Shown: positions 2,274-45,104 of the stretch, piece by piece
Layout: each line of letters begins with the position of its first letter
Numbering within the stretch: the first letter of the stretch is position 1
DNA from: Minisyncoccota bacterium
Lineage (GTDB): Bacteria; Patescibacteriota; Minisyncoccia; Phycocordibacterales; UBA9973
Length of the DNA: 64,000 nt
Assembly (NCBI GenBank): GCA_035994985.1
Contig: DASYKZ010000008.1
Coordinates: 3,643-67,642, forward strand
Direction: 5' to 3'
Position numbers and translations under genes: made by a program
Notes under the pieces: generated by a model
Seen by the model: only the letters and a program-made list of their open reading frames with translations
The model's database searches: none
What the model was told of the DNA's origin: nothing

Positions 2274-3680
2274 ATGACCCAAAGCGAAGCATTGAACATT
2301 TTAAAAACCGGAGCGAATATTTTTTTGACAGGCGAGCCGGGGTCCGGAAAGACGTACACTATAAATACGTATGTAAGCTATTTGCGTACATACGGCGTGG
2401 AGCCTGCCATCACAGCTTCCACAGGCATCGCCGCGACGCATATCGGCGGGATGACCATTCATTCCTGGAGCGGTATCGGCATCAAGAACAGGCTCGACAA
2501 ATATGATTTGGATAAAATTGCGAGTAGTGAATACATCAGTAAGCGGGTCCGCCGGACGAAAGTATTAATTATAGACGAGGTGTCCATGCTTTCGGCTGGC
2601 ACTCTTGATATGGTGGATATGGTTTGCCGTGAAATCAAACAAAGCGATGAGGCGTTTGGCGGGATACAGATTGTTTTAGTGGGGGATTTTTTTCAATTGC
2701 CGCCAATTATAAAAAAAGACTTCAAAGAGAATACAGCGAAGAGACAAAATTCTCTACTGGATGATGAAAATGTAAGTACAGATTCAGGAACTTTTGCTTA
2801 TGAGGGAAGCGCATGGCAGAGGGCGCATCTCGTAGTATGTTATTTGGGCGAACAGCACCGCCAGGACGACAAAGAATTTCTTTCAGTGCTTTCCGCCATC
2901 CGCGCGAACAATGTGACGGATGAACACCTGAACTATATAAACAAAAGGCAGATGGACTATGATGATATGTCCGAAGAAGAAATGAACACTATTACCAAGC
3001 TTTTTTCGCACAACTTGGATGTGGATAGGGTCAATTATGGAGAACTTTCAAAAATTGAAGAAGAGGCGAAGATTTTTGAAATGATGACGAGCGGCAATGA
3101 CAGGATAGTAGAGACGCTCAAGAAAGGCTGCCTGTCGCCGGAGAGTTTAGAGCTCAAAATCGGTGCCGTGGTGATGTGCACTAAAAACAATCAAAAAGAA
3201 AGGTTCGCAAACGGCACGCTTGGCACGGTGACCGGCTTTGAGGAATTTAGCGGTACTCCAATCATCAAAACACGGAGCGGGCGGAGCATTACCATTCATC
3301 CTATGGATTGGGTGGTAGAAGAAAACGGAAAAATCCGAGCGCAGATTACCCAGGTGCCGCTCCGCCTCGCTTGGGCTATTACCGTGCACAAGAGCCAAGG
3401 CATGAGCATGGATGCAGCGGTAATGGATCTTTCCCAAGTGTTTGAATTTGGGCAGGGATATGTCGCGCTCTCCCGGGTGCGCAGGCTTTCAGGGTTGTAC
3501 TTGCTTGGCATAAACGAACACGCGTTTAAAGTGAGCCCGCAAGTGCTGGAGCAAGATATCATGTTTAAAAAAACTTCTGCAGAAGCCGAAAAAGTTTTTG
3601 GGAAACTAGCAGGACCTAAAATAAGAAAAATGCACAAAGATTTTATCGTTGTCTCTGGCGGCAAGTTAAAAAAAGATTAA
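2274..3680 (+). CDS. PIF1-like ATP-dependent DNA helicase
   Basis: Walker A GEPGSGKT, PIF1 family motifs ITASTGIAA, LIIDEVSM, VLVGDFFQLPPI, C-terminal ITVHKSQGMS. Confidence 0.8.
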   Translation: MTQSEALNILKTGANIFLTGEPGSGKTYTINTYVSYLRTYGVEPAITASTGIAATHIGGMTIHSWSGIGIKNRLDKYDLDKIASSEYISKRVRRTKVLIIDEVSMLSAGTLDMVDMVCREIKQSDEAFGGIQIVLVGDFFQLPPIIKKDFKENTAKRQNSLLDDENVSTDSGTFAYEGSAWQRAHLVVCYLGEQHRQDDKEFLSVLSAIRANNVTDEHLNYINKRQMDYDDMSEEEMNTITKLFSHNLDVDRVNYGELSKIEEEAKIFEMMTSGNDRIVETLKKGCLSPESLELKIGAVVMCTKNNQKERFANGTLGTVTGFEEFSGTPIIKTRSGRSITIHPMDWVVEENGKIRAQITQVPLRLAWAITVHKSQGMSMDAAVMDLSQVFEFGQGYVALSRVRRLSGLYLLGINEHAFKVSPQVLEQDIMFKKTSAEAEKVFGKLAGPKIRKMHKDFIVVSGGKLKKD

Positions 3681-7801: not shown

Positions 7802-10800
7802 ATGGAAGACAAGGAAAAAAATAAAAAAAGTGATGCAGCTCTTCGTGAAGAGCAGGTTTTGGAATTTTGGAAAGAAAAAGATATTTTTCAAAAGTCTTTA
7901 AACAAAAATTCGCCTAAGGGAGAATTTGTTTTTTACGATGGTCCGCCGACGGCTAATGGAATGCCGGGCATACACCATCTGATTCCGCAGTCTTTCAAAG
8001 ATGCTATTCCGCGATACAAAACAATGCAGGGCTTTCATGTGCGCCGAAAGGGAGGGTGGGATACACACGGTCTTCCCGTAGAGCTTTTAGTTGAAAAAGA
8101 GCTTGGACTCAAATCTAAAAAAGAAATTGAAAGCTATGGTATTGCGGAGTTTAACCAAAAGTGCAAAGAGAGCGTCTGGAAATATGTCGATGCGTGGTAT
8201 AAATATCGCGACCGTGTAGGCTATTGGGTAGACAAAGATAATCCATACGTAACATATCACAATATGTATATAGAGTCTGTCTGGAATGTTGTCAAAAAAA
8301 TACAGGAGAAAAATTTATTGTACAAAGATTATAAAGTGGTGCCGTGGTGCCCGCGCTGCGGAACGGCGCTGTCCAGCCACGAGCTCGCGCAAGGCTACGA
8401 AGAAGTGAAAGATTTGTCGGTATATGCGAAATTCAAAATTGTAGCAAAAGAGAATACAGGTCCAGATGCGTATTTCTTAGCCTGGACTACGACTCCATGG
8501 ACATTGCCCGGAAACGTCGCCCTTGCAGTGGGGAGCGATATTGATTACGTGGAAGTCAAAACAGGGTCGAGCGAAATTCTTGTCCTTGCTAAATCCCGCC
8601 TTTCCATCTTGGATTCTGTTACTGATTCCTATGAAATCATCGCCGAGCACAAGGGCGCAGAAATGGCGGGCATGCAGTACGAACCGCTGTTTCCATATTT
8701 GAAAGAACATATTGAAAAGAAAGGCGAACCAACGGATAAAATGTTTAAGGTGTATATCGCGGACTTTGTAAATACCGAGGACGGCACCGGCATCGTGCAT
8801 ACGGCAGTAATGTACGGACAGGATGATTTTGTACTGGGGACACAGGTTGGCTTGCCGAAGCATCACCTTGTAAATCCTGAAGGGAATTTCATAAAAGGCA
8901 CAGGCTTTTTGGAAGGCAGGTTTGTCAAAGAAACAGACCGCAGCATAGATGGCAAGACGGGCAAGCCGACTTTGGCTGTGGACATCATTGAAGACTTGAA
9001 GAAGAGAAATTTATTTTTCAAGCAGGAAAATTATAAGCACTCATATCCGCACTGCTGGCGCTGCAAGACCGCGCTCATATACTATGCTCGCGACTCCTGG
9101 TATATCCGGATGTCTGAGCCTGGGATAAAAGCAGAGATGATTGCCCAGAACAAGCAAATAAATTGGGAGCCGGGCTACATACGGGACGGGCGCTTTGGCG
9201 AATGGCTGCGCGAAATAAAAGACTGGGCGATATCCAGGGAGAGATATTGGGGAACTCCTTTGCCGGTGTGGCAATGCACCGCTTGCAACAAGGTGGACGT
9301 GATTGGCAGCATGGAAGACCTGAAAAAGAAAACAAAAAAATCCGGCAATAAATATTTTGTCATGCGGCATGGGCAGTCAGAGAGCAATGTAAAAGAGGGC
9401 GCGCATGGCGTAGTGTCTTCCCGCGCTGAAAATGTGGACCATCTGACCGCAGCCGGGGTTGAGCAAGTAAAAGAAACGGCAAAGAAACTAAAAGAGAAAA
9501 ATATTAATTTTGACCTCGTATTTGTGTCGCCATTTATGCGTACCTGGGAAACGCTTGATATTTTAAAAGAAAATCTGGGATTCAAAGATGAGCAAATAAT
9601 ACTTGATAAAAGGTTGGGAGAGCTGGATGCCGGAGATTTTGAAGGCAAGCCGTGGGATGAATATAGGAGAATGTTTAAGAATGAAAGAGAAAGATTTTTA
9701 AACCCGATTCATGGCGGCGAATCAATCCTCGACGTGAAGAGGAGGATGGGGGACGTGTTTTATGAACTGGAAGAAAAATACAAGGATAAGACTATATTGG
9801 TAATTTCCCACGGAGCGCCGCTTTGGATGCTGTATGCTCTCTTGAAGGGATACAATGTAGACGAATCTATAGATATGACGGGCGGAGTATTCAGGCACAG
9901 GGAGCAAATTGAACAAGGGACATCTCCTCTTTTTTGCCTTTTTGCCAATGCGGAATATAGGGCAGTGGACTTTGTATATATCCCGCATAATAAAGATTAT
10001 GAGCTCGACTTGCACCGGCCGTTTATAGATGAAGTTAAGCTCGCATGCGCCCATTCGACGGACTCAGGGCAAGCTTGCGGCGGGGATTTAATGCGAACAC
10101 CCGAAGTCATGGATGTGTGGTTTGATTCCGGAGCCATGCCGTTTGCGCAGGACCACTATCCTTTTGATGTATTAGAGCCCCTGTACCCGGCGGATTTTAT
10201 TTCTGAAGCGATAGACCAGACTCGCGGATGGTTTTATACTTTGCACGCTGTCGGCGTACTGATGGGGCGGGGCAAAGCGTATAAAAATGTAATTTGCCTC
10301 GGCCACCTGATGGACGCTACGGGCAAGAAAATGTCGAAATCTCTTGGCAATATTATTGAGCCTTTTGAAATGATAGAAAAATACGGAGTCGACACGCTTC
10401 GCTTGTGGATGTATTCGGTAAACCAGCCGGGCGAACCGAAAAATTTTGACGAAAAGACTGTGGCTTTAATTCAAAGCCAAGTTTTCGGATTGTTGTATAA
10501 TGTACTCGCTTTTTATGAACTCTATAGGGACAAAAATTTGGAGAAAGGAGAGCAACCCAACTTTAGACCACAGTCGAAAAATATTCTCGACCAATGGATA
10601 CTCGCCCGGCTGGATGAGCTGACAGAATCTATGACGAAGAGTATGGATAGCTACAAGCTCCTTGAGCCGGTGCGGGCTGTGAGAGATTTTATCGGAGACC
10701 TCTCTACGTGGTATCTCCGCCGTTCTCGAGACAGAATAAAGGATGGAGACGCAGAAGCGAAGCAAACGCTGTATTTTGTATTAAAAACTCTGGCGAAACT

Positions 10801-11437
10801 TATGGCTCCCTTTGCGCCATTTACCGCTGACGATATTTGGCTGAAGTTAAAAAACGAAAATGACGCCGAGAGCGCGCATTTGGCGCCATGGCCGGTGAAA
10901 AAAGCAAGAAGAATGTTTTCTTTCCGCATGTTCAACAGCACGCCGGAAGTCTTGGAAAAAATGGAAGCAGTACGCACTATAGTAACCCTCGGGCTTGAGG
11001 CCCGGCAGAGTGCGGGAATAAAGGTCCGCCAGCCCTTGAATAATCTATGGGTGATAGCTGAAAGCCTGCCAAGCCGATATATAGAAATAATAAAGAGCGA
11101 ATTGAACATCAAAAATGTTATCTTTTTATTGAAAATAAAAGCGGGTATCACAAAGGTGACGCTCGACAAAACTATCACTCCCGACCTGAAGCAGGAAGGG
11201 GGCTATCGCGAGCTTGTGCGCGGGCTGCAGGACATGAGGAAAAAGCTGGGGCTTACCCCGAGCGATATGGTGGCCATAGCATTTGAGACCGGCGACATGG
11301 GCAAAAAATTGATAGAAAAGTTTGAATCTGATATGAAAAAAACCGTAATGGTTTCTAAAATTGATTTTAAGGATAATGATGGAACAGAAATAAAAGTAGA
11401 CGACTTGGTGTTTAAGGTTAAAATTGGTAAAATCTAA
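7802..11437 (+). CDS. ileS: isoleucine--tRNA ligase with an inserted histidine-phosphatase (PGAM-like) domain
   Basis: PGIHHL (HIGH), CP1 editing domain TTPWTLPGN, Zn knuckle WCPRCG/WQCTACN, KMSKS, DVWFDSG; aa ~505-735 carry RHG, SPFMRTWET, GGES, VISHGAP histidine-phosphatase motifs. Confidence 0.9.
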   Translation: MEDKEKNKKSDAALREEQVLEFWKEKDIFQKSLNKNSPKGEFVFYDGPPTANGMPGIHHLIPQSFKDAIPRYKTMQGFHVRRKGGWDTHGLPVELLVEKELGLKSKKEIESYGIAEFNQKCKESVWKYVDAWYKYRDRVGYWVDKDNPYVTYHNMYIESVWNVVKKIQEKNLLYKDYKVVPWCPRCGTALSSHELAQGYEEVKDLSVYAKFKIVAKENTGPDAYFLAWTTTPWTLPGNVALAVGSDIDYVEVKTGSSEILVLAKSRLSILDSVTDSYEIIAEHKGAEMAGMQYEPLFPYLKEHIEKKGEPTDKMFKVYIADFVNTEDGTGIVHTAVMYGQDDFVLGTQVGLPKHHLVNPEGNFIKGTGFLEGRFVKETDRSIDGKTGKPTLAVDIIEDLKKRNLFFKQENYKHSYPHCWRCKTALIYYARDSWYIRMSEPGIKAEMIAQNKQINWEPGYIRDGRFGEWLREIKDWAISRERYWGTPLPVWQCTACNKVDVIGSMEDLKKKTKKSGNKYFVMRHGQSESNVKEGAHGVVSSRAENVDHLTAAGVEQVKETAKKLKEKNINFDLVFVSPFMRTWETLDILKENLGFKDEQIILDKRLGELDAGDFEGKPWDEYRRMFKNERERFLNPIHGGESILDVKRRMGDVFYELEEKYKDKTILVISHGAPLWMLYALLKGYNVDESIDMTGGVFRHREQIEQGTSPLFCLFANAEYRAVDFVYIPHNKDYELDLHRPFIDEVKLACAHSTDSGQACGGDLMRTPEVMDVWFDSGAMPFAQDHYPFDVLEPLYPADFISEAIDQTRGWFYTLHAVGVLMGRGKAYKNVICLGHLMDATGKKMSKSLGNIIEPFEMIEKYGVDTLRLWMYSVNQPGEPKNFDEKTVALIQSQVFGLLYNVLAFYELYRDKNLEKGEQPNFRPQSKNILDQWILARLDELTESMTKSMDSYKLLEPVRAVRDFIGDLSTWYLRRSRDRIKDGDAEAKQTLYFVLKTLAKLMAPFAPFTADDIWLKLKNENDAESAHLAPWPVKKARRMFSFRMFNSTPEVLEKMEAVRTIVTLGLEARQSAGIKVRQPLNNLWVIAESLPSRYIEIIKSELNIKNVIFLLKIKAGITKVTLDKTITPDLKQEGGYRELVRGLQDMRKKLGLTPSDMVAIAFETGDMGKKLIEKFESDMKKTVMVSKIDFKDNDGTEIKVDDLVFKVKIGKI

Positions 11438-11439
11438 AT

Positions 11440-12021
11440 GTGCATCACATTTATCACACAGAAGGAATAATATTGGGGAGCAAGAATTTCAGGGAATCAG
11501 ACAAATATTATTATATTTTTACCCGCGACTTGGGGCTGGTGTATGCTTCGGCTTCGGGCGTGCGCAAGATGTCTTCCAAGCTTCGCTTCATACTGCAGGA
11601 TTTTTCCTATGTGAAGGTCGACCTCGTCCAAGGCAAAAATATCTTCCGGGTGACGAGCGCCTCCAAGAAAAATCTTCTGGAAAACATCATCAAGCGCCCT
11701 CTAACATTTAAAATTTTACACAATATTGCCCGCCTGCTCAGGCGTCTGCTCGCCGGCGTCGAGCCAAACGAAGCCTTATTTGTGGATTTGCTGCATAGCC
11801 TGTCTGTCTTGGAGAAGATTGATACAAAGGAGGACTTGCACAACATTGAAGCGATTATAGTTTTACGCATATTAAACAATCTGGGGTATATCGGTGACAA
11901 TGAAAATCTGAAAGAACTTGTAAAATCACCATTTGAGGAGACAATGATATTTGAAGCTTCAAAATCCAGAAGCCATATCTTGAATCAAATCAACAAAGCA
12001 TTGAAAGAGACCCATCTTTAG
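11440..12021 (+). CDS. recO: DNA repair protein RecO
   Basis: N-terminal OB-fold pattern EGIILGSKNFRESDKYYYIFTRDLGLVYASASGVRK typical of RecO. Confidence 0.7.
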   Translation: MHHIYHTEGIILGSKNFRESDKYYYIFTRDLGLVYASASGVRKMSSKLRFILQDFSYVKVDLVQGKNIFRVTSASKKNLLENIIKRPLTFKILHNIARLLRRLLAGVEPNEALFVDLLHSLSVLEKIDTKEDLHNIEAIIVLRILNNLGYIGDNENLKELVKSPFEETMIFEASKSRSHILNQINKALKETHL

Positions 12022-14182: not shown

Positions 14183-15805
14183 ATGAAAGAAGAAAAAAAC
14201 AACAAAGAGAATGATAAGAATAAGCTGATGGAAAACATAGTCTCGCTTTGCAAAAGGCGCGGATTTATTTTTCAGGGTTCGGAAATATATGGAGGGCTCT
14301 CCGGTACATACGACTGGGCGCATTTCGGGGTCGCTCTGAAAAACAATATAAAACAGAACTGGTGGAAAAAATTTGTAGATTCCAGGCGGGATATGTATGG
14401 CATTGACGCGGCTATTCTGATGAATCAAAAAGTATGGGAGGCTTCAGGCCACGTGGCAGGGTTTGCGGACCCAATGATAGAATGCAAAAGCTTGGATTGT
14501 GGTTTTCGAGAAAGATTAGATAAATTATTTGAAGCTTCTAATCTTAGTTTGCAAGATTCTTACGATTTATACATAAAAAGCAAATTCAAAGAAACTGAAA
14601 TTAAAAGTAAAAAATTTGCAGAATACTATGCAAAAATCAAAGCACCTAAAGAAAAAGATAAGATAGATAGAGCCTTAAGAGATCTTATAGAAATAGATGC
14701 TGTTTTAGATATTAAAGATGTGTTACTTGATTTAAGGGAAAATAATATTAATTGGGTGGATGAATACAAAAAAGACCCTGCAAAATATATGTTTTTTGTT
14801 GCTCATGACCTTGTTAAGGAGTACAAAATTGTTTGTCCTAAATGTAAAAAAGAAAATTTTGCAGCTCCTAAAAACTTTAATATGATGTTCGCTACTAAAG
14901 TTGGTGCGGTGGAAGACTCTTCTGCTACTTCATACCTTCGTCCTGAAACGGCGCAAGGCATATTCGTTAATTTTAAAAATACAGTTGATGCTTTTCACCC
15001 AAAGCTTCCTTTCGGCATGGCCCAAATCGGCAAGGCCTTTCGAAATGAAATTACACCTAGGGATTTTTTATTTCGCCAGCGGGAATTTGAACAGATGGAA
15101 ATAGAATATTTTATCCGCCCTGCCGACTGGGAAAAGTATTTCGAATACTGGAGGGGGGAGATGCTCGACTGGATGGAAGAGCTCGGGCTTGATATGGCAA
15201 AGGTGCATGAAATAGATGTGCCTGATGCTGACCGCGCACACTATTCTAAAAAGACTATTGATTTCGAGTTTGATTTTCCTTTCGGACAAAAAGAACTTTT
15301 CGGGCTGGCCTACAGGACAGACTTTGATTTAAAAACCCACAAGCTGGAATACATAGACGAAGAAAATAAAGAGAAAATGGTTCCGCATGTCATCGAGCCG
15401 TCCATGGGGGTGGACCGTGCTATCCTCGCCTTGCTTATCTCTGTGTATGCCGAAGATGAAAAGGATGGGGAGATGCGTTCGTACCTGAAATTCAAACCAA
15501 ATATTGCGCCTGTTATTTGTGCCGTATCGCCGCTCTTAAAAAATAAGCCAGAGCTGGTGGAATATGCGAACACACGAGTATACGCTCCGCTCAAGGCAGA
15601 GTTTGGCCGGGTGGCATGGGACGACAATGGCAACATCGGCAAACGGTACCGCCGGCAGGATGAAATCGGCACGCCATTTTGCATCGTAGTGGATTTTGAT
15701 ACGCTGACTGATGATACTGTGACTGTGCGGGACAGAGACACCGGCGAGCAGGAGAGAGTGAAAGTGGAAAATTTAGAAAGTTATATAAAAGAAAGGATAA
15801 GCTAG
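14183..15805 (+). CDS. glyQS: glycine--tRNA ligase (alpha2 type)
   Basis: FQGSEIYGGLSGTYDW, YLRPETAQGIFVNFKN, class II motifs, C-terminal anticodon-binding domain. Confidence 0.85.
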   Translation: MKEEKNNKENDKNKLMENIVSLCKRRGFIFQGSEIYGGLSGTYDWAHFGVALKNNIKQNWWKKFVDSRRDMYGIDAAILMNQKVWEASGHVAGFADPMIECKSLDCGFRERLDKLFEASNLSLQDSYDLYIKSKFKETEIKSKKFAEYYAKIKAPKEKDKIDRALRDLIEIDAVLDIKDVLLDLRENNINWVDEYKKDPAKYMFFVAHDLVKEYKIVCPKCKKENFAAPKNFNMMFATKVGAVEDSSATSYLRPETAQGIFVNFKNTVDAFHPKLPFGMAQIGKAFRNEITPRDFLFRQREFEQMEIEYFIRPADWEKYFEYWRGEMLDWMEELGLDMAKVHEIDVPDADRAHYSKKTIDFEFDFPFGQKELFGLAYRTDFDLKTHKLEYIDEENKEKMVPHVIEPSMGVDRAILALLISVYAEDEKDGEMRSYLKFKPNIAPVICAVSPLLKNKPELVEYANTRVYAPLKAEFGRVAWDDNGNIGKRYRRQDEIGTPFCIVVDFDTLTDDTVTVRDRDTGEQERVKVENLESYIKERIS

Positions 15806-18228: not shown

Positions 18229-19707
18229 ATGACAAGCGAGACAAGTAAGAAAAGTTTCTATATTACTACTACAATTCCATATGTGAACGCAGACCCTCAT
18301 ATTGGCTTCGCGCTGGAGCTCGTACAGTCTGACGCTATGGCCAGATGGAAACGTCTGAGAGGCGAAGAAGTTTTTTTTAGCACAGGTACTGATGAGTACG
18401 GCCAGAAGATTTGGGAGGCGAGCGAGAAACAAGGTATGCCTGTCCAAGAATATGTAGACCATTACGCGCAAAAATTTCTGGACCTCAAAAAACTACTCAA
18501 TCTTTCGACTGATAATTTTATCAGGACTACGAGCGGGCAAAACATACAGGCGGCGCAGGAGCTTTGGCGGCTGTGCGATGCGAAGGGTGATATTTATAAA
18601 TCAAAATACACAGGACTGTATTGCGTTGGGTGTGAGACATTTTATACAGAAAAAGATTTAATAGACGGCAAATGCCCGATACACCTTGTTCCAGTGGAAA
18701 AAATTGAAGAAGAAAATTATTTTTTCAAGCTGACTAATTATAGGGAGCAAATCCTAAAATATTTTGAAAACAAAGGGTCAATTTTGCCGGAGTGGCGACG
18801 GCTAGAAGCGATTAAATTTGTGGAGCGGGACATGGAGGACTTTTCAATTTCCCGCAGTTCTAAAAGGGTTTCTTGGGGCATACCTGTCGTCGGAGACGAT
18901 ACACAGGTAATGTATGTGTGGTTTGGGGCCCTGGTAAACTATATTTCCACGCTCGGATGGCCCTTTGCTTCCGCTCAAGACTTTCGGCCCGAAACAGACC
19001 AAATAAATAATTTTGAAAAATTTTGGACGAATGGTTTTACAGTGCAAACTGCGGGAAAAGACATGGTGAAATTCCAGTCTGTGATGTGGCAGGGGATGCT
19101 GTTGTCTGCAGGACTCGCTCCTACCGACCAAGTAGTGTACCACGGGTTTATTACCGGCGAGGGCGGGATAAAAATGTCCAAGTCTCTCGGCAATGTAATC
19201 AATCCAAGTGAAATTGTACAAGAATACGGCACAGATGCGCTCCGGTATTTTTTGCTCCGTGAAATTTCTCCGTTTGAGGACAGCCCTTTTACCATGGAGC
19301 GATTTAAGGATGCATACAATTCAGGCCTGGCAAACGGGCTTGGAAATTTGGCTTCTCGAATTTTAACTTTGTCAGAAAAATATCTAGAACAGTGTCCTCC
19401 AATTCCGGAGCATTCTATCCCCGAGGAATTTAAAGACTTGCTCGGTAAATTTGAAATTCAAAAAGCGGTAAATTTTATATGGAATGAAATAGGCGAATTA
19501 GATAGATTTATTCAGGAAACAGAGCCGTTTAAAGTGATAAAAGTAGATGAGACAAAAGGTAAAAAATTAATTTCTGAAATGGTTCTGCGCCTGTACACGA
19601 TAGCCAGAATGTTAAATCCAATAATGCCGGAGACAAACGTGACTCTAAAAAAACTCATCAAAGAAAACAAAAAGCCGGACAAGCCGCTTTTCTTGAGAAA
19701 AGAATAA
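18229..19707 (+). CDS. metG: methionine--tRNA ligase (short form without C-terminal tRNA-binding domain)
   Basis: YITTTIPYVNADPHIGFA (HIGH region), CxxC zinc knuckles, KMSKSLGN. Confidence 0.9.
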   Translation: MTSETSKKSFYITTTIPYVNADPHIGFALELVQSDAMARWKRLRGEEVFFSTGTDEYGQKIWEASEKQGMPVQEYVDHYAQKFLDLKKLLNLSTDNFIRTTSGQNIQAAQELWRLCDAKGDIYKSKYTGLYCVGCETFYTEKDLIDGKCPIHLVPVEKIEEENYFFKLTNYREQILKYFENKGSILPEWRRLEAIKFVERDMEDFSISRSSKRVSWGIPVVGDDTQVMYVWFGALVNYISTLGWPFASAQDFRPETDQINNFEKFWTNGFTVQTAGKDMVKFQSVMWQGMLLSAGLAPTDQVVYHGFITGEGGIKMSKSLGNVINPSEIVQEYGTDALRYFLLREISPFEDSPFTMERFKDAYNSGLANGLGNLASRILTLSEKYLEQCPPIPEHSIPEEFKDLLGKFEIQKAVNFIWNEIGELDRFIQETEPFKVIKVDETKGKKLISEMVLRLYTIARMLNPIMPETNVTLKKLIKENKKPDKPLFLRKE

Positions 19708-38775: not shown

Positions 38776-38882
38776 ATTGCTGTTTTTACAATTTTCTCCT
38801 TAGAAAAAGCCCCATAATGGGGCTTTTTCTTTTTCCCATGCTGACATTTACTTTCCCGCTATTGAGTTGTACAATTAAGGAT

Positions 38883-40475
38883 ATGTTAAAGATGAAAAAC
38901 TTATTGTTTTTGGGGCTTGTATTTGGCCTTTTCATATCTATTACTAGTTTAGAAGCAATTAAAAAAGTAAGCGCAGAAGGTAAAGGAGAGGTACAAACGG
39001 GCACGAAGGGAGAGGTGCGAAATCCGAGCCTCATAAAACATAACTCTACTGTAAAAACGCCCGAGGCAGAGCCAAGAGAGATACAAGAAAATTTGAAGGG
39101 CACGCTCCGGGAAATAATCCTAGACTCATTTGAGAGGGACCCAAGCAAAGCTGGCGCAGGCATCGCGTACGCGATAGAAACACCAGACTTAAAATCGGTA
39201 TCCGTAGAATTTTCCGGAACCAAAGCAAGTGAAAAATTCCGCAATGCAGATATTGAAGTCGAGGGCGGATGGAATAGAAATGGTAGTTTTACGGTAAAAA
39301 AAGTAATTTCTGTAGTGCCTCAAAATATCGAAAGCGTAGTCCGCAGCGAAATAGAAACTCTGGACGCAAACGGGGCGCCGACCAAATCGAGCCTGCTCGG
39401 CCCGGAAGCTACCACAGGAGCCTATACAGTCTTGGTTATACCGGTAAATTTCACCGACGTCACTTCACAGCCGGTAACGGTAGCCCAGATACGGGATGTC
39501 CTTTACGGAAGCAGCTCGTCGATAAATTCTCAATTTAAAGAAATGTCCCAAGGCAGATTTTACCTGACAGGCATCCAGCGTCCCGACATAGATATCCTGG
39601 ATTGGGTTACACTCCCGCATACAAGCGACAATTGTCCAAGTAATATGCTCGGCACATGGGCAAACGAGGCGAGAGTCCTTGCCCGGGCCCAGGGTTTTGA
39701 ACCAAACAACTACAGAAGCGTTGTATTGATTTTTCCGTCAAATATCCCAAGTTGTAATGGCTGGGGAGGGCAGGGTGCCATTGGTACCCTTGGCAGCACT
39801 ATTGGTTCCAACAATGTATGGATACAATATGAGGCCGGGCTGGACTTAAAATTTTTAAGAAGCATGCTTATGCACGAGATGGGGCATAACCTCGGCTTAA
39901 TGCATTCGAGCCTGGTAAAACATTGCCAGGAATCAGCTTTAATTCCCCAAGATTGCCAAAGCATAGAATATGGTGACCATTTTTCACCCATGGGAAATAC
40001 CGTTTTCTTCCTCCGCAATTATAATAATTTTCATCTCGAGCAGCTTGGCTGGCTCGGTGCCGGAGCTAAAGTTACAAATTTGCCGCAAGCCGGAACCTAT
40101 AATCTGAATTTATTTTCTCCGTCGTTTATAAAAGGGTCTCAGGTCGTCAGTATTCCTCTGAAGAATTCAAATGGAGTTCCCACGGGACAGAGCGTGTACT
40201 TGGAATTCCGCAGACAAACGCCGCCGTTTGATATGTTTACAGGCGACTTTTTTCAAAATGTAACCAGAGGCGTCTCAGTCAGATTTGCCCCATCCAGCCT
40301 CACGGCCCAGACAAATACGTATTTGCTGGACTACACCGAAACAACTGAACCAATTGATGATGCGGCAATTGAGGTGGGGCAAACGTATGTAAATTCAACC
40401 TATGGTTTCAGCATTAGGACAAATTCTATCAATCCCGGACGGGGAGCAAGCATTACTATTCAGCTGACCCGCTAA
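38883..40475 (+). CDS. secreted metzincin-type zinc metalloprotease
   Basis: signal peptide MLKMKNLLFLGLVFGLFISITSLEA; HEMGHNLGLMH (HExxHxxGxxH); longer ORF from 38817 lacks signal peptide so ATG 38883 preferred. Confidence 0.6.
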   Translation: MLKMKNLLFLGLVFGLFISITSLEAIKKVSAEGKGEVQTGTKGEVRNPSLIKHNSTVKTPEAEPREIQENLKGTLREIILDSFERDPSKAGAGIAYAIETPDLKSVSVEFSGTKASEKFRNADIEVEGGWNRNGSFTVKKVISVVPQNIESVVRSEIETLDANGAPTKSSLLGPEATTGAYTVLVIPVNFTDVTSQPVTVAQIRDVLYGSSSSINSQFKEMSQGRFYLTGIQRPDIDILDWVTLPHTSDNCPSNMLGTWANEARVLARAQGFEPNNYRSVVLIFPSNIPSCNGWGGQGAIGTLGSTIGSNNVWIQYEAGLDLKFLRSMLMHEMGHNLGLMHSSLVKHCQESALIPQDCQSIEYGDHFSPMGNTVFFLRNYNNFHLEQLGWLGAGAKVTNLPQAGTYNLNLFSPSFIKGSQVVSIPLKNSNGVPTGQSVYLEFRRQTPPFDMFTGDFFQNVTRGVSVRFAPSSLTAQTNTYLLDYTETTEPIDDAAIEVGQTYVNSTYGFSIRTNSINPGRGASITIQLTR

Positions 40476-40491
40476 ATATCTCCTTGCTTGA

Positions 40492-40558
40492 CCCCGTAGT
40501 AGATTTTGGCGAAGCCCTTTAGGGCATGCTACGCATATCGCCAAAATTCACTACGGGG
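40492..40558. repeat. extragenic palindromic element CCCCGTAGTAGA-WTTTTG ... CAAAATTCACTACGGGG, copy 1
   Basis: second copy at 59461-59508; both sit immediately 3' of a + strand stop codon. Confidence 0.6.
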
Positions 40559-40659
40559 TTGACATCTTTTTGGCTTTAGTATAGTATCAACCTATCAGTA
40601 TGAATATTACAAGAAACAGTTTAAAAGGGCGGTCTCGGTAGACTATTTCTTTTGTCTGC

Positions 40660-40690
40660 TACCCGCCTGAAAGGCGGTTTTTTTATTGTA
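40660..40690 (+). terminator. intrinsic terminator
   Basis: acccgcctgaaaggcggtttttttatt. Confidence 0.6.
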
Positions 40691-41393
40691 AAATCAGCAC
40701 GGTTTGAAAATTGAAAACTTAATTCTTGCCCTATTTCTTTTCCCGTTCGCGGGATTGGGTCTTTTTAGAGGCAAGAAAAATTCGTTTACATGGTTATCCG
40801 AGCGGTCGGAAATTATAATTATGTAAAAGGATTCTTGCCCGCCTTTGGCGGGTGAATTTTTCCACTGAAAAGGTGGAATTGTGATTTTCAAATTTCTTAA
40901 CAGGAAATTTAAGGGCGTACGGTGGATGCCTTGACTGTAAGAGGCGATGAAGGACGTAGCAAAGCTGCGATAAGCTTCGGGGAGGTGCCTAGCAACCTTT
41001 GATCCGGAGATTTCCGAATGGGGAAACCCTGCATAGTAAACCTATGTAACTTTTATCTTTATGATAATAAGAGCGTACCCTGGGAAGTGAAACATCTCAG
41101 TACCAGGAGGAGTAGAGAACAATAGTTATTTTCTTAGTAGCGGCGAGCGAAAAGGAAGAAGCCCAAACCGATGTAGCAATATATCGGGGTTGTAAGATGA
41201 CAATGTAGATTTCTAGAAGAGTCAAAAAATACATAATTAGTTGAAGTTGCTGGAAAGCGACACCATAGGGGGTGATAGTCCCGTAAGCGAAAATTATGTG
41301 TCTCTTTTATTGTTATTCTTGAGTACCCCAGGACATGAATGGCCGGGGGGAATCCAGCGGAACTAACCGCTAAGGCTAAATACTCTTACAGAT

Positions 41394-41430
<37 letters not shown>

Positions 41431-42165
41431 CAGCCCGATTAGGGCGGTGAAATAGACCTGAAACCGTATGTCTACAAGGAGTCGATGCACTGCTTCGGCG
41501 GTGCTACGGCGTGCCTATTGAAGAATGAGCCAACGAGTTTATTCATACTGCAAGGCTAAGTGGGCTAAAACCACAGAGCCAAAGGGAAACCGAGTGTTAA
41601 TAGCGCGACTTTAGTAGTATGCATAAGACCCGAAGCCAGGTGAGCTTGCCATGAGCAGGTTGAAGTTCGCAGAAATGCGGATGGAGGACCGAACCGGTAG
41701 ATCGTACAACGTCTTCGGATGACTTGTGGTAAGGAGTGAAAAGCTAATCGAACCTGGTAATAGCTGGTTCTCTCCGAAATAGCTTTAGGGCTAGCGTCGT
41801 GTGTTTTTTCTGGGGGTAGAGCACTGGAAGATTTCGACAGGGAGCAATCTCGCGAAACCTATCAAACTCCGAATACCAGAAACCATAGCACGGCAGTTAG
41901 GCCATGGGGGCGAAGCTCCATTGGCCAAAAGGGAAACAGCCCAGATCTCAAAATAAGGTCCCTAAATATATACTAAGTGTAAGACAAGAAGGTGAGATTT
42001 CTTAAACAATGAGGAGGTTGGCTTAGAAGCAGCCATCCTTTAAAGATAGCGTAACAGCTCACTCATCTAGAGATTTTGCGTCGAAAATAATTGGGGCTAA
42101 GTATATTACCGAATTTGAGGATTCGTAGACTTCATCAAGAAAAAATTGTTCTTTTGTTTTAATGT

Positions 42166-42241
42166 GGGGGCGTAGCTCAGATGGTAGAGCACTTCGCTGG
42201 CAGCGAAGGGGTCGGGAGTTCGATGCTCCTCGCCTCCACCA
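42166..42241 (+). tRNA. tRNA-Ala (anticodon GGC), encoded inside the 23S helix-45 intervening sequence
   Basis: 76 nt cloverleaf: acceptor GGGGGCG/CGCCTCC with G3:U70, D arm GCTC-AGATGGTA-GAGC, anticodon loop CTGGCAG, T arm GGGAG-TTCGATG-CTCCT, encoded CCA. Confidence 0.8.
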
Positions 42242-42277
42242 CTTCATTTTTTGAAGTGAATTGTTTTGTTTTTACGT

Positions 42278-42355
42278 AGCCGCTTAGCTCAACATGGATA
42301 GAGCACTTGCCTAACAAGCAAGGGGTTACGGGTTCGAGCCCCGTAGCGGCCACCA
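42278..42355 (+). tRNA. tRNA-like gene, formally Val (anticodon AAC), atypical (A1:C72 mismatch, A34)
   Basis: D arm GCTC-AACATGGATA-GAGC, anticodon stem CTTGC/GCAAG loop CTAACAA, T arm ACGGG-TTCGAGC-CCCGT, 3' ACCA; may be a tRNA mimic rather than a decoding tRNA. Confidence 0.45.
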
Positions 42356-43170
42356 CCTTACTTTTTGTAAGGTAACAAATATTTTTTCCCAAGGAATTTT
42401 CTTTCGAGAACTTTCTTTGGGTTCTTGATGAAGTCTACGAGTGGTAGGAGAGTGTTCCACTCTGCTGTGAAGGAAGACTCGTGAGAGCTTCTGGAGCGTG
42501 TGGAAGTAAGAATGTTGGCACAAGTAACCGCAATGATGTTGAGAACGCATCACGTCGAAAGATCAAGGTTTCCTTGGTAATGATAATCAGCCAAGGGTTA
42601 GTCGGGCCTAAGGGAATGGTGAAAACCGTACTCGATGGACACAGGGTTAATATTCCCTGACTTCTGTATATAGTGATGGGATGACGGAGGGTAGTATGTA
42701 TCGCTCATTATTGGATTTGAAGTTTATGCCTTAATTGTACGCTATAGGAAAATCCGTAGCGTGACTTAAATGTCATATGAAAGAGGAGTAAAAAGTTTTC
42801 CGTTCGCGGAGGGCAATGATACAAAGCACGCTTCCAAGAAAACTCTCTAAACTTATATATATAGAATCCGTACCGCAAACCGACACAGGTGATCAGGTCG
42901 AGTAGACCAAGACGAACGAGTGAGTGGTCCCCAAGGAACTCGGCAAAAAAGCAGCCGTAACTTCGGGATAAGGCTTGCCCCTCTTTATTGAGGGGCCGCA
43001 GCGAAAGTATCTCTGGCAACTGTTTACCAAAAACACAGCTCCCTGCGAACTCGTAAGAGGATGTATAGGGGGTGACACCTGACCAATGCCAGAAGGTCAA
43101 ATATCGGCGTTTCTAATAGCAATATTATTGGTGACTGATATAAGCCCTGGTGAATGTCGGCCGTAACTAT

Positions 43171-43494
43171 AGACAAAACCGTTGTAGTTACGCAAATAAA
43201 TCTTGCTATATGCTGGAAAACCCGTGTATCTTCAAATACTCATTCAAGGAAACTTGAGTAGTGAAAATTTTGAAGCGTTGCCTAAATCTTAATTGATCGG
43301 TTAACGGATAATCAGCAGGCAACCTGCGCAAGCAGAGAGTCCTCAGAGACTATACGCAAGACAATTTCAAATCAATAATTGGAGTCGACGATTTGAAAAT
43401 GATGATATAGTCCGACCTCTATGGCGACATAGAGCTAACACGTTTTAGTTTTTGTTTGGTAAACAATAGATTACATATTCAACCTTAAGAAAAG
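43171..43494 (+). mobile_element. group I intron in 23S (site equivalent to E. coli ~1917), ORF-less
   Basis: splits conserved GGCCGTAACTAT | AACGGTCCTAAGG; IGS ccgttGTAGTT near 5' end pairs with 5' exon AACTAT (P1, U.G) and 3' exon AACGG (P10); P7 halves cagAGACTAta / gaTATAGTCcgacc (cf. Tetrahymena GAUAUAGUCGGACC); ends in G. Confidence 0.75.
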
Positions 43495-44171
43495 AACGGT
43501 CCTAAGGTAGCGAAATACCTTGTCGGGTAAGTTCCGACGCGCACGAATGGTGTAATGACTGGAGAACTGTCTCGGGGACCAGCTCGGTGAAAATACAATA
43601 CCGGTGAAGATGCCGGTTAAGTGCAGTTAGACGAAAAGACCCTAGAAGCTTTACTATAACTTGATATTGAGTATGTTTTTAGACTGCGTAGCATAGATGG
43701 GAGAGGTTTGATGGATAAGGTTTCGGCTTTGTTCTACTCGTCAGTGAAATACCATTCTTTTTGAAGGCATATTCTAACCAATGCGGCAAAAACGCATTGA
43801 GACAGTATCTGGTGGATAGTTTTACTGGGGCTGTACCCTCCTAAAAAGTAAAGGAGGGGTTTAAAGGTAATCTAGGCGCGAATGGAAACCGTGCCGATAG
43901 TGTAATAGCACAAGATTGCTTGACTGTGAGAGGTACATCTCGAGCAGGTGGGAAACCAGAATATAGTGAACCGACCACCCGTATTAGACGCGGTGGAAGA
44001 TTAACGGATAAAAGCTACTCTAGGGATAACAGGCTAGTTCCGCCCAAGAGTTCATATCGACGGCGGAGTTCGGCACCTCGATGTCGGCTCACCTTAGCGC
44101 GGTGGCGGAGAAGCTACCAAGCGTTTGGCTGTTCGCCAATTAAAAAGGTACGCGAGCTGGGTTCAGACCGT

Positions 44172-44555
44172 TTTGAAAATACAGGCACTAGGCTTTAGGC
44201 GCTAGGCATTAGCATTAGATTTTGCTAGAGCCTAAAGCCTAAATTTCCTAAAGCCTTGTTTTCGGGACAGTCTGAACCCTCAGAGGAAATAAGAGCTCAA
44301 ATGAACTTATACTGTTTTAATCGAAGACAACCAAGTGTATTAAATTACACACCACGGCGGTTCTAAATTTTATTTAGGAAGAAGTCGGGGTTTTCGGTGA
44401 AATCCAATCCTGAGATTTATCGAAGGAGGACAACACCGAGTGCCGTAAAGGCATGTAGAGACTACAAACCGACCACGAGAAATTGTGAATGTATAGTCCA
44501 ATCCCTTTAGTAATAAAGGTTCCGCGCTTGTAGAGCGCGGAAGTAAAATAAAATG
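44172..44555 (+). mobile_element. group I intron in 23S (site equivalent to E. coli ~2593), ORF-less
   Basis: splits conserved GGGTTCAGACCGT | CGTGAGACAGGTTGGTC; P7-like tAGAGACTAcaaa / tgTATAGTCc; ends in G; boundaries +/- few nt. Confidence 0.6.
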
Positions 44556-44989
44556 CGTGAGACAGGTTGGTCTCCTATCTACTGCACTCGTTGATTCTTG
44601 AGAAGATTTGCCCCTAGTACGAGAGGACCGGGGTGAACTGACCTCTGGTGTACGAGCTGTCCTGCCAAGGGCACTGCTCGGTAGCTATGTCGGGAATGGA
44701 TAACCTCTGAAAGCATCTAAGAGGGAAGCCAGCTTCAAGATTAGGAATCGTTAAGAACCCTGAGAGATGATCAGGTTGATAGGCTTTAAGTGTAAGCGCA
44801 GTAATGCGTTCAGCTGAGAAGTACTAATGTTTCGATTCCTGTTAAGAAATTTGGAAATCACACCCCGCACATAACTTACTAAATAATCTAAAAAAATTAA
44901 GTGAATTTTATCTCATGGAATATTCATTTAAAGAAAAAGGTTGTTTGTTAAGTTATGTGCGGGGACCAAAAAATATTCGCTTCGAATAT

Positions 44990-45104
44990 AATGTTCTGGT
45001 GCTTAAACGGCGGAGTCACATCTCTTCCCATTTCGAACAGAGCAATTAAGCCCGCTAGTGCCGATGATACTTGTAAAGGAAAAGTAGGTAGGTGCCAGAA
45101 CAGT
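44990..45104 (+). rRNA. rrf: 5S ribosomal RNA
   Basis: TTCTGGTGC...CCCATTTCGAACAGAG...GCCGATGATACTTG...GGTGCCAGAA aligns with 5S helices I-V; preceded by 18-bp spacer stem ccccgcacataacttac / gtaagttatgtgcgggg (44863-44966). Confidence 0.8.

Follow-up and report, generated by a model that had tools for sequence, protein, structure and literature searches.

A histidine phosphatase domain nested in the isoleucyl-tRNA synthetase of Patescibacteria

The stretch of DNA considered here (the window) comprises 64,000 nucleotides (64 kb) of contig DASYKZ010000008.1 from a Minisyncoccota bacterium (assembly GCA_035994985.1, Patescibacteriota) and contains ileS, the gene for a type-2 (eukaryote-like) isoleucyl-tRNA synthetase (IleRS) of 1211 amino acids (aa), in which a complete histidine phosphatase (HP) is nested. 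This architecture can be regarded as close to certain. The reading frame carries no internal stop codon in translation, and a preliminary description had placed the phosphatase at 9314..10006, an interval that proves to correspond exactly, and in frame, to aa 505-735 of the 1211-aa product. All motifs quoted in that description were recovered from the translation, namely WQCTACNKVDVIGS (aa 490-503), KYFVMRHGQSESN (517-529), VSPFMRTWET (575-584), LGELDAGDFEG (605-615), HGGES (637-641), ILVISHGAPL (665-674), DLHRPFIDEV (736-745) and DVWFDSG (771-777). The proposed membership in the HP superfamily is borne out by Pfam, in which the His_Phos_1 model PF00300 matches aa 519-688 (E=1.3e-31; score 110 bits, gathering score 21.7); overall, scores for this model lie at 110-115 bits (E=1e-31 to 5e-33).

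The insertion site was described as lying between the zinc knuckle and the DLHRP...DVWFDSG segment. This holds for the start of the knuckle, but the domain does not follow the whole knuckle; it sits inside it, with C492 and C495 on one side and C749 and C759 on the other. These four cysteines occur together in 113 of the 120 closest homologues and are jointly lost in the other seven. Alignment with the IleRS2 of Priestia megaterium (PDB 8C8W) delimits the insert: residues 4-510 of the window protein align with 8C8W 2-477 and residues 728-1106 with 8C8W 479-847, so that about 217 residues here correspond to about one residue there. The expectation that characterised IleRS have almost no linker at this point is therefore correct, residues 477 and 479 of 8C8W matching residues 510 and 728 of the query. 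The junction is itself conserved (K513-S514-G515-N516-x-Y518, with F724 also conserved), and D736, H738 and P740, past the insert, are invariant in the 120 homologues. In the domain scheme of yeast IleRS, which distinguishes a CP core, CP1/editing, CP2 and CP3 (PMC11685878), the knuckle hosting the insert is probably the CP3 region, an assignment made here from its position between PLPVW and DLHRP...DVWFDSG. The features of the gene are collected in Table 1.

Table 1. Coordinates of ileS and of the features within it (window positions; homologue counts refer to the 120 closest homologues unless another alignment is named)
Feature	Positions	Strand	Evidence
ileS, type-2 (eukaryote-like) IleRS with nested phosphatase, 1211 aa	7802..11437	+	single open reading frame; TIGR00392; PDB match 8C8W
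HIGH signature, variant form G56-I57-H58-H59	7967..7978	+	translation; H58 invariant in 80 homologues
CP1 editing-domain motif WTTTPWTLPGN, aa 228-238	8483..8515	+	invariant or nearly so in 80-sequence alignment
Zinc knuckle, first half, WQCTACNKVDVIGS (C492, C495)	9269..9310	+	Cys pair in 113/120 homologues
Inserted histidine-phosphatase (branch 1) domain, aa 511-727; Pfam core 519-688	9332..9982	+	PF00300; 8C8W alignment; AlphaFold (AF2); Foldseek
R522-H523-G524, RHG motif; H523 predicted phospho-acceptor nucleophile	9365..9373	+	120/120 homologues
R580, phosphate-binding Arg of SPFxRT motif	9539..9541	+	120/120 homologues
E607, predicted general acid/base	9620..9622	+	120/120 homologues
H670 of SHG motif, second catalytic His	9809..9811	+	120/120 homologues
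Return to IleRS core: PHNKDYELDLHRP and second knuckle half (C749, C759) up to R765	9983..10096	+	aligns from 8C8W residue 479
KMSKS loop, aa 843-847	10328..10342	+	invariant in 80-sequence alignment
Anticodon-binding helical domain (Anticodon_1), aa 930-1079	10589..11038	+	PF08264, E=3.7e-30
C-terminal type-2 IleRS domain DUF5915, aa 1115-1210	11144..11431	+	PF19302, E=7e-17

The possibility that the arrangement is an assembly chimera or a frame artefact is negligible. PF00300 and the IleRS domains occur together in all 120 closest homologues, which come from independent assemblies and thereby exclude a misjoin; the junctions are shared by the 119 further homologues and by hundreds of more distant ones in many assemblies, the reading frame lacks stops, no flanking repeats are present and the base composition is gene-like. 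An identical protein is found on two contigs, and in the 119 next-best database matches (60-74% identity, 1130-1384 aa) PF00300 accompanies the IleRS domains without exception; where a name is given, these matches are assigned to Paceibacterota, Nomurabacteria, Minisyncoccia or Patescibacteria. Apart from a 15-nt match attributable to chance, the insert is flanked by neither direct nor inverted repeats, and its GC content overall and at third codon positions (GC3), 0.427/0.447, is near that of the rest of ileS (0.454/0.510). A recent mobile insertion is rejected on account of this lack of flanking repeats and the host-like GC/GC3.

The synthetase surrounding the domain is intact: the HIGH variant, KMSKS, the CP1 motifs and both zinc sites are all conserved, and the gene product is predicted from its sequence to be a working type-2 IleRS. 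The NCBIfam model for isoleucine--tRNA ligase (TIGR00392) is reached with 878 bits against a cut-off of 621.4, the Pfam tRNA-synt_1 match is broken into two stretches around the insert (E=2e-115), and the best PDB match is the P. megaterium enzyme (8C8W, E=1e-230), with Thermus thermophilus IleRS (1ILE) at E=2.5e-217. The next-best NCBIfam matches are the MupA and MupB models (NF000257/NF000258), which are not reached (734 and 760 bits against 1900). The same is true of ileS_w_GNAT (NF040702; 325.6 bits against 1999), and no acetyltransferase match was returned by Pfam for the IleRS protein. The 64-kb window contains no other ileS. The GIHH sequence at aa 56-59 represents the [A/G]XHH form of the HIGH signature described in a recent preprint (10.64898/2026.02.03.703510); mupirocin hyper-resistance in IleRS2 has been tied to this variant by that 2026 preprint and the reference it cites. 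In the NCBI pipeline, the window IleRS and many related proteins receive no more specific name than 'class I tRNA ligase family protein'. This might reflect a TIGR00392 match broken up by the insert, though the 878 bits of the window protein exceed the cut-off of 621. Because of this generic naming, automated surveys of genome completeness or metabolism could score ileS as missing.

The fold of the insert was modelled with AlphaFold (AF2) over aa 482-790 from 80 homologues, with a mean predicted local distance difference test score (pLDDT) of 90.1 and a predicted template modelling score (pTM) of 0.88. The top 50 Foldseek matches of the insert model in the PDB all belong to the HP superfamily at probability 1.00, and these neighbours are whole enzymes some 200 aa long (target-normalised TM-score 0.70-0.76, E ~1e-11 to 1e-12), among them Mycobacterium tuberculosis GpgP, the Hydrogenobacter thermophilus phosphoserine phosphatase (iPSP), the riboflavin-pathway enzyme HFP, PhoE, CobC and TIGAR. 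The insert thus constitutes a whole domain, joined by very short linkers, and not a fragment. Structural modelling had been suggested in the preliminary description as a means of placing the domain relative to the synthetase active site; the phosphatase fold is confidently predicted locally, but its placement is not, the full-length model reaching a pTM of only 0.60.

By sequence, the nearest solved proteins are the H. thermophilus phosphoserine phosphatase and PhoE (E ~1e-9 to 1e-10), and no NCBIfam subfamily cut-off is reached. The scores are 71-76 bits against 162.9 for alpha-ribazole phosphatase CobC (TIGR03162), 68-72 against 326 for the bifunctional RNase H/acid phosphatase (NF005567), 57.5-62 against 350 for phosphoserine phosphatase PspA (NF045917), and 38-44 against 74.5 for SixA (TIGR00249), with an alignment limited to the N-terminal third. 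Three models of cofactor-dependent phosphoglycerate mutase (dPGM) behave likewise: dPGM_arch (NF038349; 65-69 against 225), the PRK01295 model (NF002339; 57.5 against 316) and pgm_1 (TIGR01258; 34.3 against 81.7). Assignment to dPGM, CobC, SixA, PspA or GpmB is thus rejected, all scores lying under the NCBIfam cut-offs, and the insert is best described as a compact PhoE/CobC-like phosphatase assigned to no NCBIfam subfamily. The embedded HP domains are mildly acidic (median pI ~6), which suggests that they lack a generic RNA-binding surface and constitutes weak evidence against direct binding of tRNA.

The pattern of conservation within the insert differs sharply from that of its host. In the 120 homologues, mean pairwise identity is only 0.44 over the HP core but reaches 0.70-0.81 in the Rossmann, editing and KMSKS regions, and yet R522, H523, G524, R580, E607, R648 and H670 are invariant, with N529 and E640 nearly so. 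Among 20 deep IleRS, whose flanks are only 34-44% identical, R522, H523, R580 and H670 are kept throughout and E607 is retained in at least 90%; for the RHG motif, R and H are fixed in 21 deeply diverged IleRS, in which the Gly is nearly invariant. An invariant catalytic set on a fast-drifting surface is the signature of a live active site, and the nested enzyme is apparently active. These comparisons show an old graft, lineage-wide in Paceibacteria, with purifying selection on its catalytic residues.

When 1.84 billion cluster representatives were searched exhaustively with the insert by HMMER, 8501 matches at E<=1e-3 were obtained. Among the 150 best 50%-cluster representatives, which include 149 sequences other than the window protein, 91 of these 149 are class Ia synthetases or fragments thereof, and in such synthetase matches the domain is nearly always at the same place, with IleRS flanks 35-65% identical. 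Another 55 are short, being either free-standing proteins or fragments, with ~35-50% identity, and three are unclassified. One free-standing relative (P0169) has gene neighbours unrelated to translation. A scan of GTDB species genomes listed at most 600 candidate stretches, and among these the full insert is found only in Patescibacteria, specifically in Minisyncoccia/Paceibacteria, Yanofskybacteria, Spechtbacterales and Peregrinibacteria, plus one metagenome-assembled genome that carries the label Gammaproteobacteria. In the same list, the IleRS2 of Bacillota, Chloroflexota, Actinomycetota, Cloacimonadota, Ignavibacteriota and others match only over the 45-50 residues after the insert; no segment of equal length was seen in ordinary IleRS outside the Patescibacteria. 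Within the phylum the domain is polymorphic, being absent from at least one IleRS, of 1016 aa (L066), and present twice in a Peregrinibacteria enzyme of 1484 aa (L021). The preliminary description had called this an unusual synthetase architecture, a judgement that stands outside the Patescibacteria; inside the phylum, it is the norm throughout a large clade of IleRS, and valyl-tRNA synthetase (ValRS) shows it as well. A neighbour-joining tree of HP domains is star-like, its only cluster being the three ValRS copies of one protein (P0174), and it was not used for conclusions.

The domain also varies in copy number and in the loops, here termed ports, that it occupies. In Gracilibacteria/Peregrinibacteria-type IleRS, HP domains are found in 105 of 119 sequences, once in 88, twice in 15 and three times in two. 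Port S1 is the knuckle loop, as in the window IleRS; S2 is the loop between DxWF(D/E)SG and DQTRGWF; and S3 lies past the KMSKS/stem-contact region, ahead of the anticodon-binding helices. All three IleRS ports are filled in two proteins, and one form with two HPs (P0255, 1419 aa) is present on six contigs, one of them of 1.06 Mb. In the ValRS of the same lineages (P0276-P0393), one to four HP copies occur in 71 of 120 top matches, on contigs of up to 1.37 Mb. Most of these lie 12-18 residues past IPVW and about 30 ahead of DTWFSS, that is, in the loop homologous to S1, and some copies occupy a second site between QWF and WCISRQ. Of the 84 ValRS copies, 83 retain the nucleophile Arg-His pair and 75 the second His, but only 60 the acid/base Glu; the losses of Glu and His suggest that some extra copies may be degenerate. 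The nested HP of the window IleRS is one case of a phylum-wide habit in which patescibacterial IleRS and ValRS carry one to four HPs in a few surface loops.

Other enzymes have entered the same positions, and relatives with such extra enzymes at their ports reach 1859 aa. A HAD_2/Hydrolase-type phosphatase occupies S2 in a protein without any HP (P0456), a serine hydrolase of the alpha-beta hydrolase type is found at S2 in P0446, and GNAT acetyltransferases are located at IleRS ports in P0211, P0395 and many others. P-loop kinases resembling AAA_33, AAA_18 or zeta toxin lie directly after the HP or at S3 (P0457, P0480, P0472). Near the C-terminus, past the equivalent of aa 1198, three homologues of 63-69% identity (P0021, P0046, P0104) carry an additional HD segment of about 130-170 aa; P0021 and P0046, the two that were scanned, match the generic Pfam HD/HD_3 models and not the RelA/SpoT hydrolase family. 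An HU-like tail is present in P0308. DUF559 (Vsr/endonuclease-like) and IS200 Y1-transposase-like domains are found in frame in the CP1/editing region of ValRS and IleRS (P0299, P0334, P0472, P0211), which suggests that proteins of selfish elements can become fixed in these genes.

With respect to function, the reading tentatively favoured here, which stops a little short of being probable, is that the domain would be an autonomous phosphomonoesterase tethered to the synthetase, with the synthetase serving mainly as scaffold. In such an enzyme, H523 would attack a terminal phosphate held by R522, R580 and H670, while E607 would serve as acid/base. The substrate would be a small phosphorylated nucleotide or metabolite, and not isoleucyl-adenylate (Ile-AMP) or diadenosine tetraphosphate (Ap4A). 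Besides being a permissive scaffold, the synthetase would ensure that, inside a very small cell, the phosphatase is co-expressed with the translation machinery and stands in a constant ratio to it. Members of the HP superfamily act on terminal phosphomonoesters via a phospho-histidine intermediate, and action on the aminoacyl-adenylate or Ap4A, as proposed in the preliminary description, is accordingly unlikely on chemical grounds. An autonomous enzyme acting on small molecules is favoured by the wide separation of the ports in sequence, the presence of unrelated enzymes at the same ports, the metabolite phosphatases among the fold neighbours and the acidity of the domains.

Several observations weigh against this view. 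Internal insertion is far rarer than end-to-end fusion, yet IleRS shows it repeatedly, and ValRS has acquired it independently at the corresponding loop; this recurrence hints at a functional link to class Ia synthetase chemistry or to tRNA, and pure piggy-backing does not account for it. The replacement of HP by the unrelated HAD fold at the same port suggests that phosphatase activity there is itself selected. The arginyl-tRNA synthetase (ArgRS), methionyl-tRNA synthetase (MetRS) and class II synthetase of the window have no such domain. Furthermore, the full-length AlphaFold model is of limited quality (pLDDT 76.8, pTM 0.60), with a poor N-terminal Rossmann half.

The alternative that survives best is healing of tRNA 3' ends in cis, a possibility on the unlikely side, in which the phosphatase would free the CCA end of a 3'-phosphate or pyrophosphate, such as might be left by toxSAS-type toxins or nucleases, and the same enzyme could then charge the tRNA. 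The kinases, HAD phosphatases and HD domains of relatives would then belong to the same repair and defence toolkit. Repeated grafting into tRNA-binding class Ia synthetases, at a homologous loop in IleRS and ValRS, is consistent with this role; the HAD domain at a shared port and the AAA_33 kinases beside HP recall kinase-phosphatase end-healing enzymes, and the C-terminal HD domain added in three close homologues points the same way. Pyrophosphorylation of the CCA end of tRNA is known to block aminoacylation and to be reversed by HD-type hydrolases (10.1101/2021.04.30.441581), and the existence of such a reversible modification likewise favours healing. Quick evolution of the domain would suit a role in conflict. 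Against this, the HP ports are far apart in sequence, one of them beside the anticodon-binding domain, so that the phosphatase does not need a defined orientation towards the CCA end. Moreover, embedded copies are acidic, and their nearest folds are small-molecule phosphatases. The HAD domain at the port gives a HAD_2/Hydrolase-type match, and the HAD_2 family is typical of capped small-molecule phosphatases and not of the cap-less polynucleotide 3'-phosphatase (PNK3P) type. Nor do the HD domains match the RelA/SpoT hydrolase family, only generic HD/HD_3. A broader version, which is rather unlikely, regards patescibacterial IleRS and ValRS as modular platforms whose ports would hold a tRNA-protection and repair toolkit (histidine and HAD phosphatases, P-loop kinases, GNAT acetyltransferases and esterases) guarding the acceptor end or neutralising synthetase-directed toxins in cis.

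Sensor or structural, protein-phosphatase and mutase roles are less likely than either the autonomous or the healing role. It is improbable that the domain is a non-catalytic module whose fold is retained for sensing a phospho-ligand or as a structural prop, and through which IleRS would be regulated or stabilised. Such a function would accommodate the ValRS copies in which the acid/base Glu (24 of 84) or the second His (9 of 84) is replaced, as well as the conserved junction motifs (KSGNxY, F724) and the modelling of knuckle and HP as one rigid body (pTM 0.88). However, the catalytic residues are all invariant in the window IleRS clade (120 of 120) despite 44% identity, which is the pattern of an active enzyme. 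More improbable still is a protein phosphatase that removes inhibitory phosphates placed on the synthetase itself or on nearby translation factors, for instance by HipA/HipT-type kinase toxins that target aminoacyl-tRNA synthetases. PGAM5, Sts-1 and SixA are histidine phosphatases acting on proteins, glutamyl- and tryptophanyl-tRNA synthetases (GluRS and TrpRS) are inactivated by HipA-family kinases, and tethering to the target would make sense; on the other side, the SixA model gives only 38-44 bits against 74.5, the fold neighbours are metabolite phosphatases, and no kinase toxins were seen in the window, where no search was aimed at them. Fusion of the cell's own dPGM, the glycolytic enzyme, into IleRS so as to save a gene is very improbable: the superfamily is the same and weak matches to dPGM models exist, but every equivalog lies far under its cut-off (65.5 against 225, 57.5 against 316, 34 against 81.7), the insert is about 40 residues shorter than dPGMs, and it has ELDAG and SHGAPL, which differ from the mutase motifs ERHYG and HGNS.

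Among known systems, the type-2 P. megaterium IleRS2 (8C8W/8C8U) and T. thermophilus IleRS (1ILE) are close: like them, the window protein is collinear over the whole enzyme and possesses the class I motifs, the CP1 editing domain, two zinc sites, the anticodon-binding domain, the type-2 C-terminus and [A/G]XHH; unlike them, it has ~217 residues where they have ~1. The insert shares fold, size and the RHG/R/E/H set with PhoE (1H2E/1EBB), iPSP1 (4IJ5), GpgP Rv2419c (4PZ9), CobC (6E4B) and HFP (9MMH), at only 19-26% identity, and those enzymes are free-standing whereas this one is nested in another enzyme. The NCBI exception family ileS_w_GNAT (NF040702) is likewise an IleRS with an extra enzyme domain, and GNAT is found at the same ports in relatives; the window protein itself, however, has no GNAT and scores far under the cut-off. 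In the bifunctional RNase H/acid phosphatase (NF005567, Rv2228c type), which is among the best NCBIfam matches, a CobC-like histidine phosphatase is also joined to a nucleic-acid enzyme, but by end-to-end fusion and not by nested insertion.

Modules inserted in the loops of class Ia synthetases include the CP1 editing domain and the leucine-specific domain of leucyl-tRNA synthetase (LeuRS). The INS subdomain of IleRS2 is also an inserted module (10.64898/2026.02.03.703510). The HP resembles these three in being an extra module in a loop of the catalytic or anticodon-binding body; they function in editing or in the binding of tRNA and lack an enzymology of their own, whereas the HP is a member of an unrelated enzyme superfamily. 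Phosphoesterases also occur on tRNA-handling enzymes, as in polynucleotide kinase-phosphatase and in the HD domain of the bacterial CCA-adding enzyme, and this likeness is functional only; the folds concerned are HAD, metallophosphoesterase and HD. The sequences are public, the domains are visible to annotation pipelines, and lineage-specific inserted modules in synthetases are already known; JGI, for example, names one relative 'isoleucyl-tRNA synthetase/phosphohistidine phosphatase SixA/...GNAT'. What is unusual here is that the inserted module is an unrelated enzyme, one that seems to be active and that recurs, in several copies. No literature describing an HP inside IleRS or ValRS was found, coverage being incomplete and an earlier description possible, and a 2026 preprint that annotates the domain architectures of 96,219 IleRS makes no mention of phosphatases or Patescibacteria.

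Aminoacyl-tRNA synthetases are among the most conserved enzymes; only rarely has their core gained a new catalytic domain, and such gains have generally gone along with new biology, for example editing or signalling. If the domain acts on tRNA ends or against synthetase-directed toxins, it would represent a new quality-control or defence function built into a synthetase. If it is instead an unrelated housekeeping enzyme, it would show how tiny cells and genomes economise by nesting enzymes in essential proteins. In addition, the ports map the class Ia synthetase loops that tolerate insertions of 200 aa, which is useful for protein engineering.

Elsewhere in the window, four synthetase genes lie within 20 kb: ArgRS (20-1774), IleRS (7802-11437), a class II enzyme (14183-15805) and MetRS (18229-19707). 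A Pif1-type helicase gene (2274-3680) is located among them, and a short RecO gene (11440-12021) begins 3 nt past the ileS stop codon. No second HP domain is encoded elsewhere in the window. The 23S and 5S rRNA genes are contained in 38817-45100, with no 16S gene upstream; as the preceding 1.6 kb is a protein-coding frame (38817-40475), the rRNA genes appear to be unlinked.

The 23S rRNA gene (40898-44846) exceeds the 2925-nt model by about 1 kb. It is interrupted by an insertion at 42125-42439, closed by an 18-bp stem in which cgtagacttcatcaagaa (42125-42142) pairs with ttcttgatgaagtctacg (42422-42439), and the alignment to the large-subunit rRNA model is continuous across this region (model positions 785-2049). 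The insertion holds two complete tRNA genes, tRNA-Ala(GGC) at 42166-42241 and tRNA-Val(AAC) at 42278-42355, both with an encoded CCA and a score of 59 bits each with the Rfam tRNA model. If tRNA genes are nested in an intervening sequence in this way, tRNA processing would cut the 23S rRNA into fragments. The tRNA-Val(AAC) has A at position 34, a nucleotide that in bacteria is normally restricted to tRNA-Arg(ACG), and this may reflect an expanded repertoire of A-to-I editing or decoding by unmodified A34. A group I intron (RF00028, 82.5 bits) at 43105-43434 also interrupts the 23S rRNA gene.

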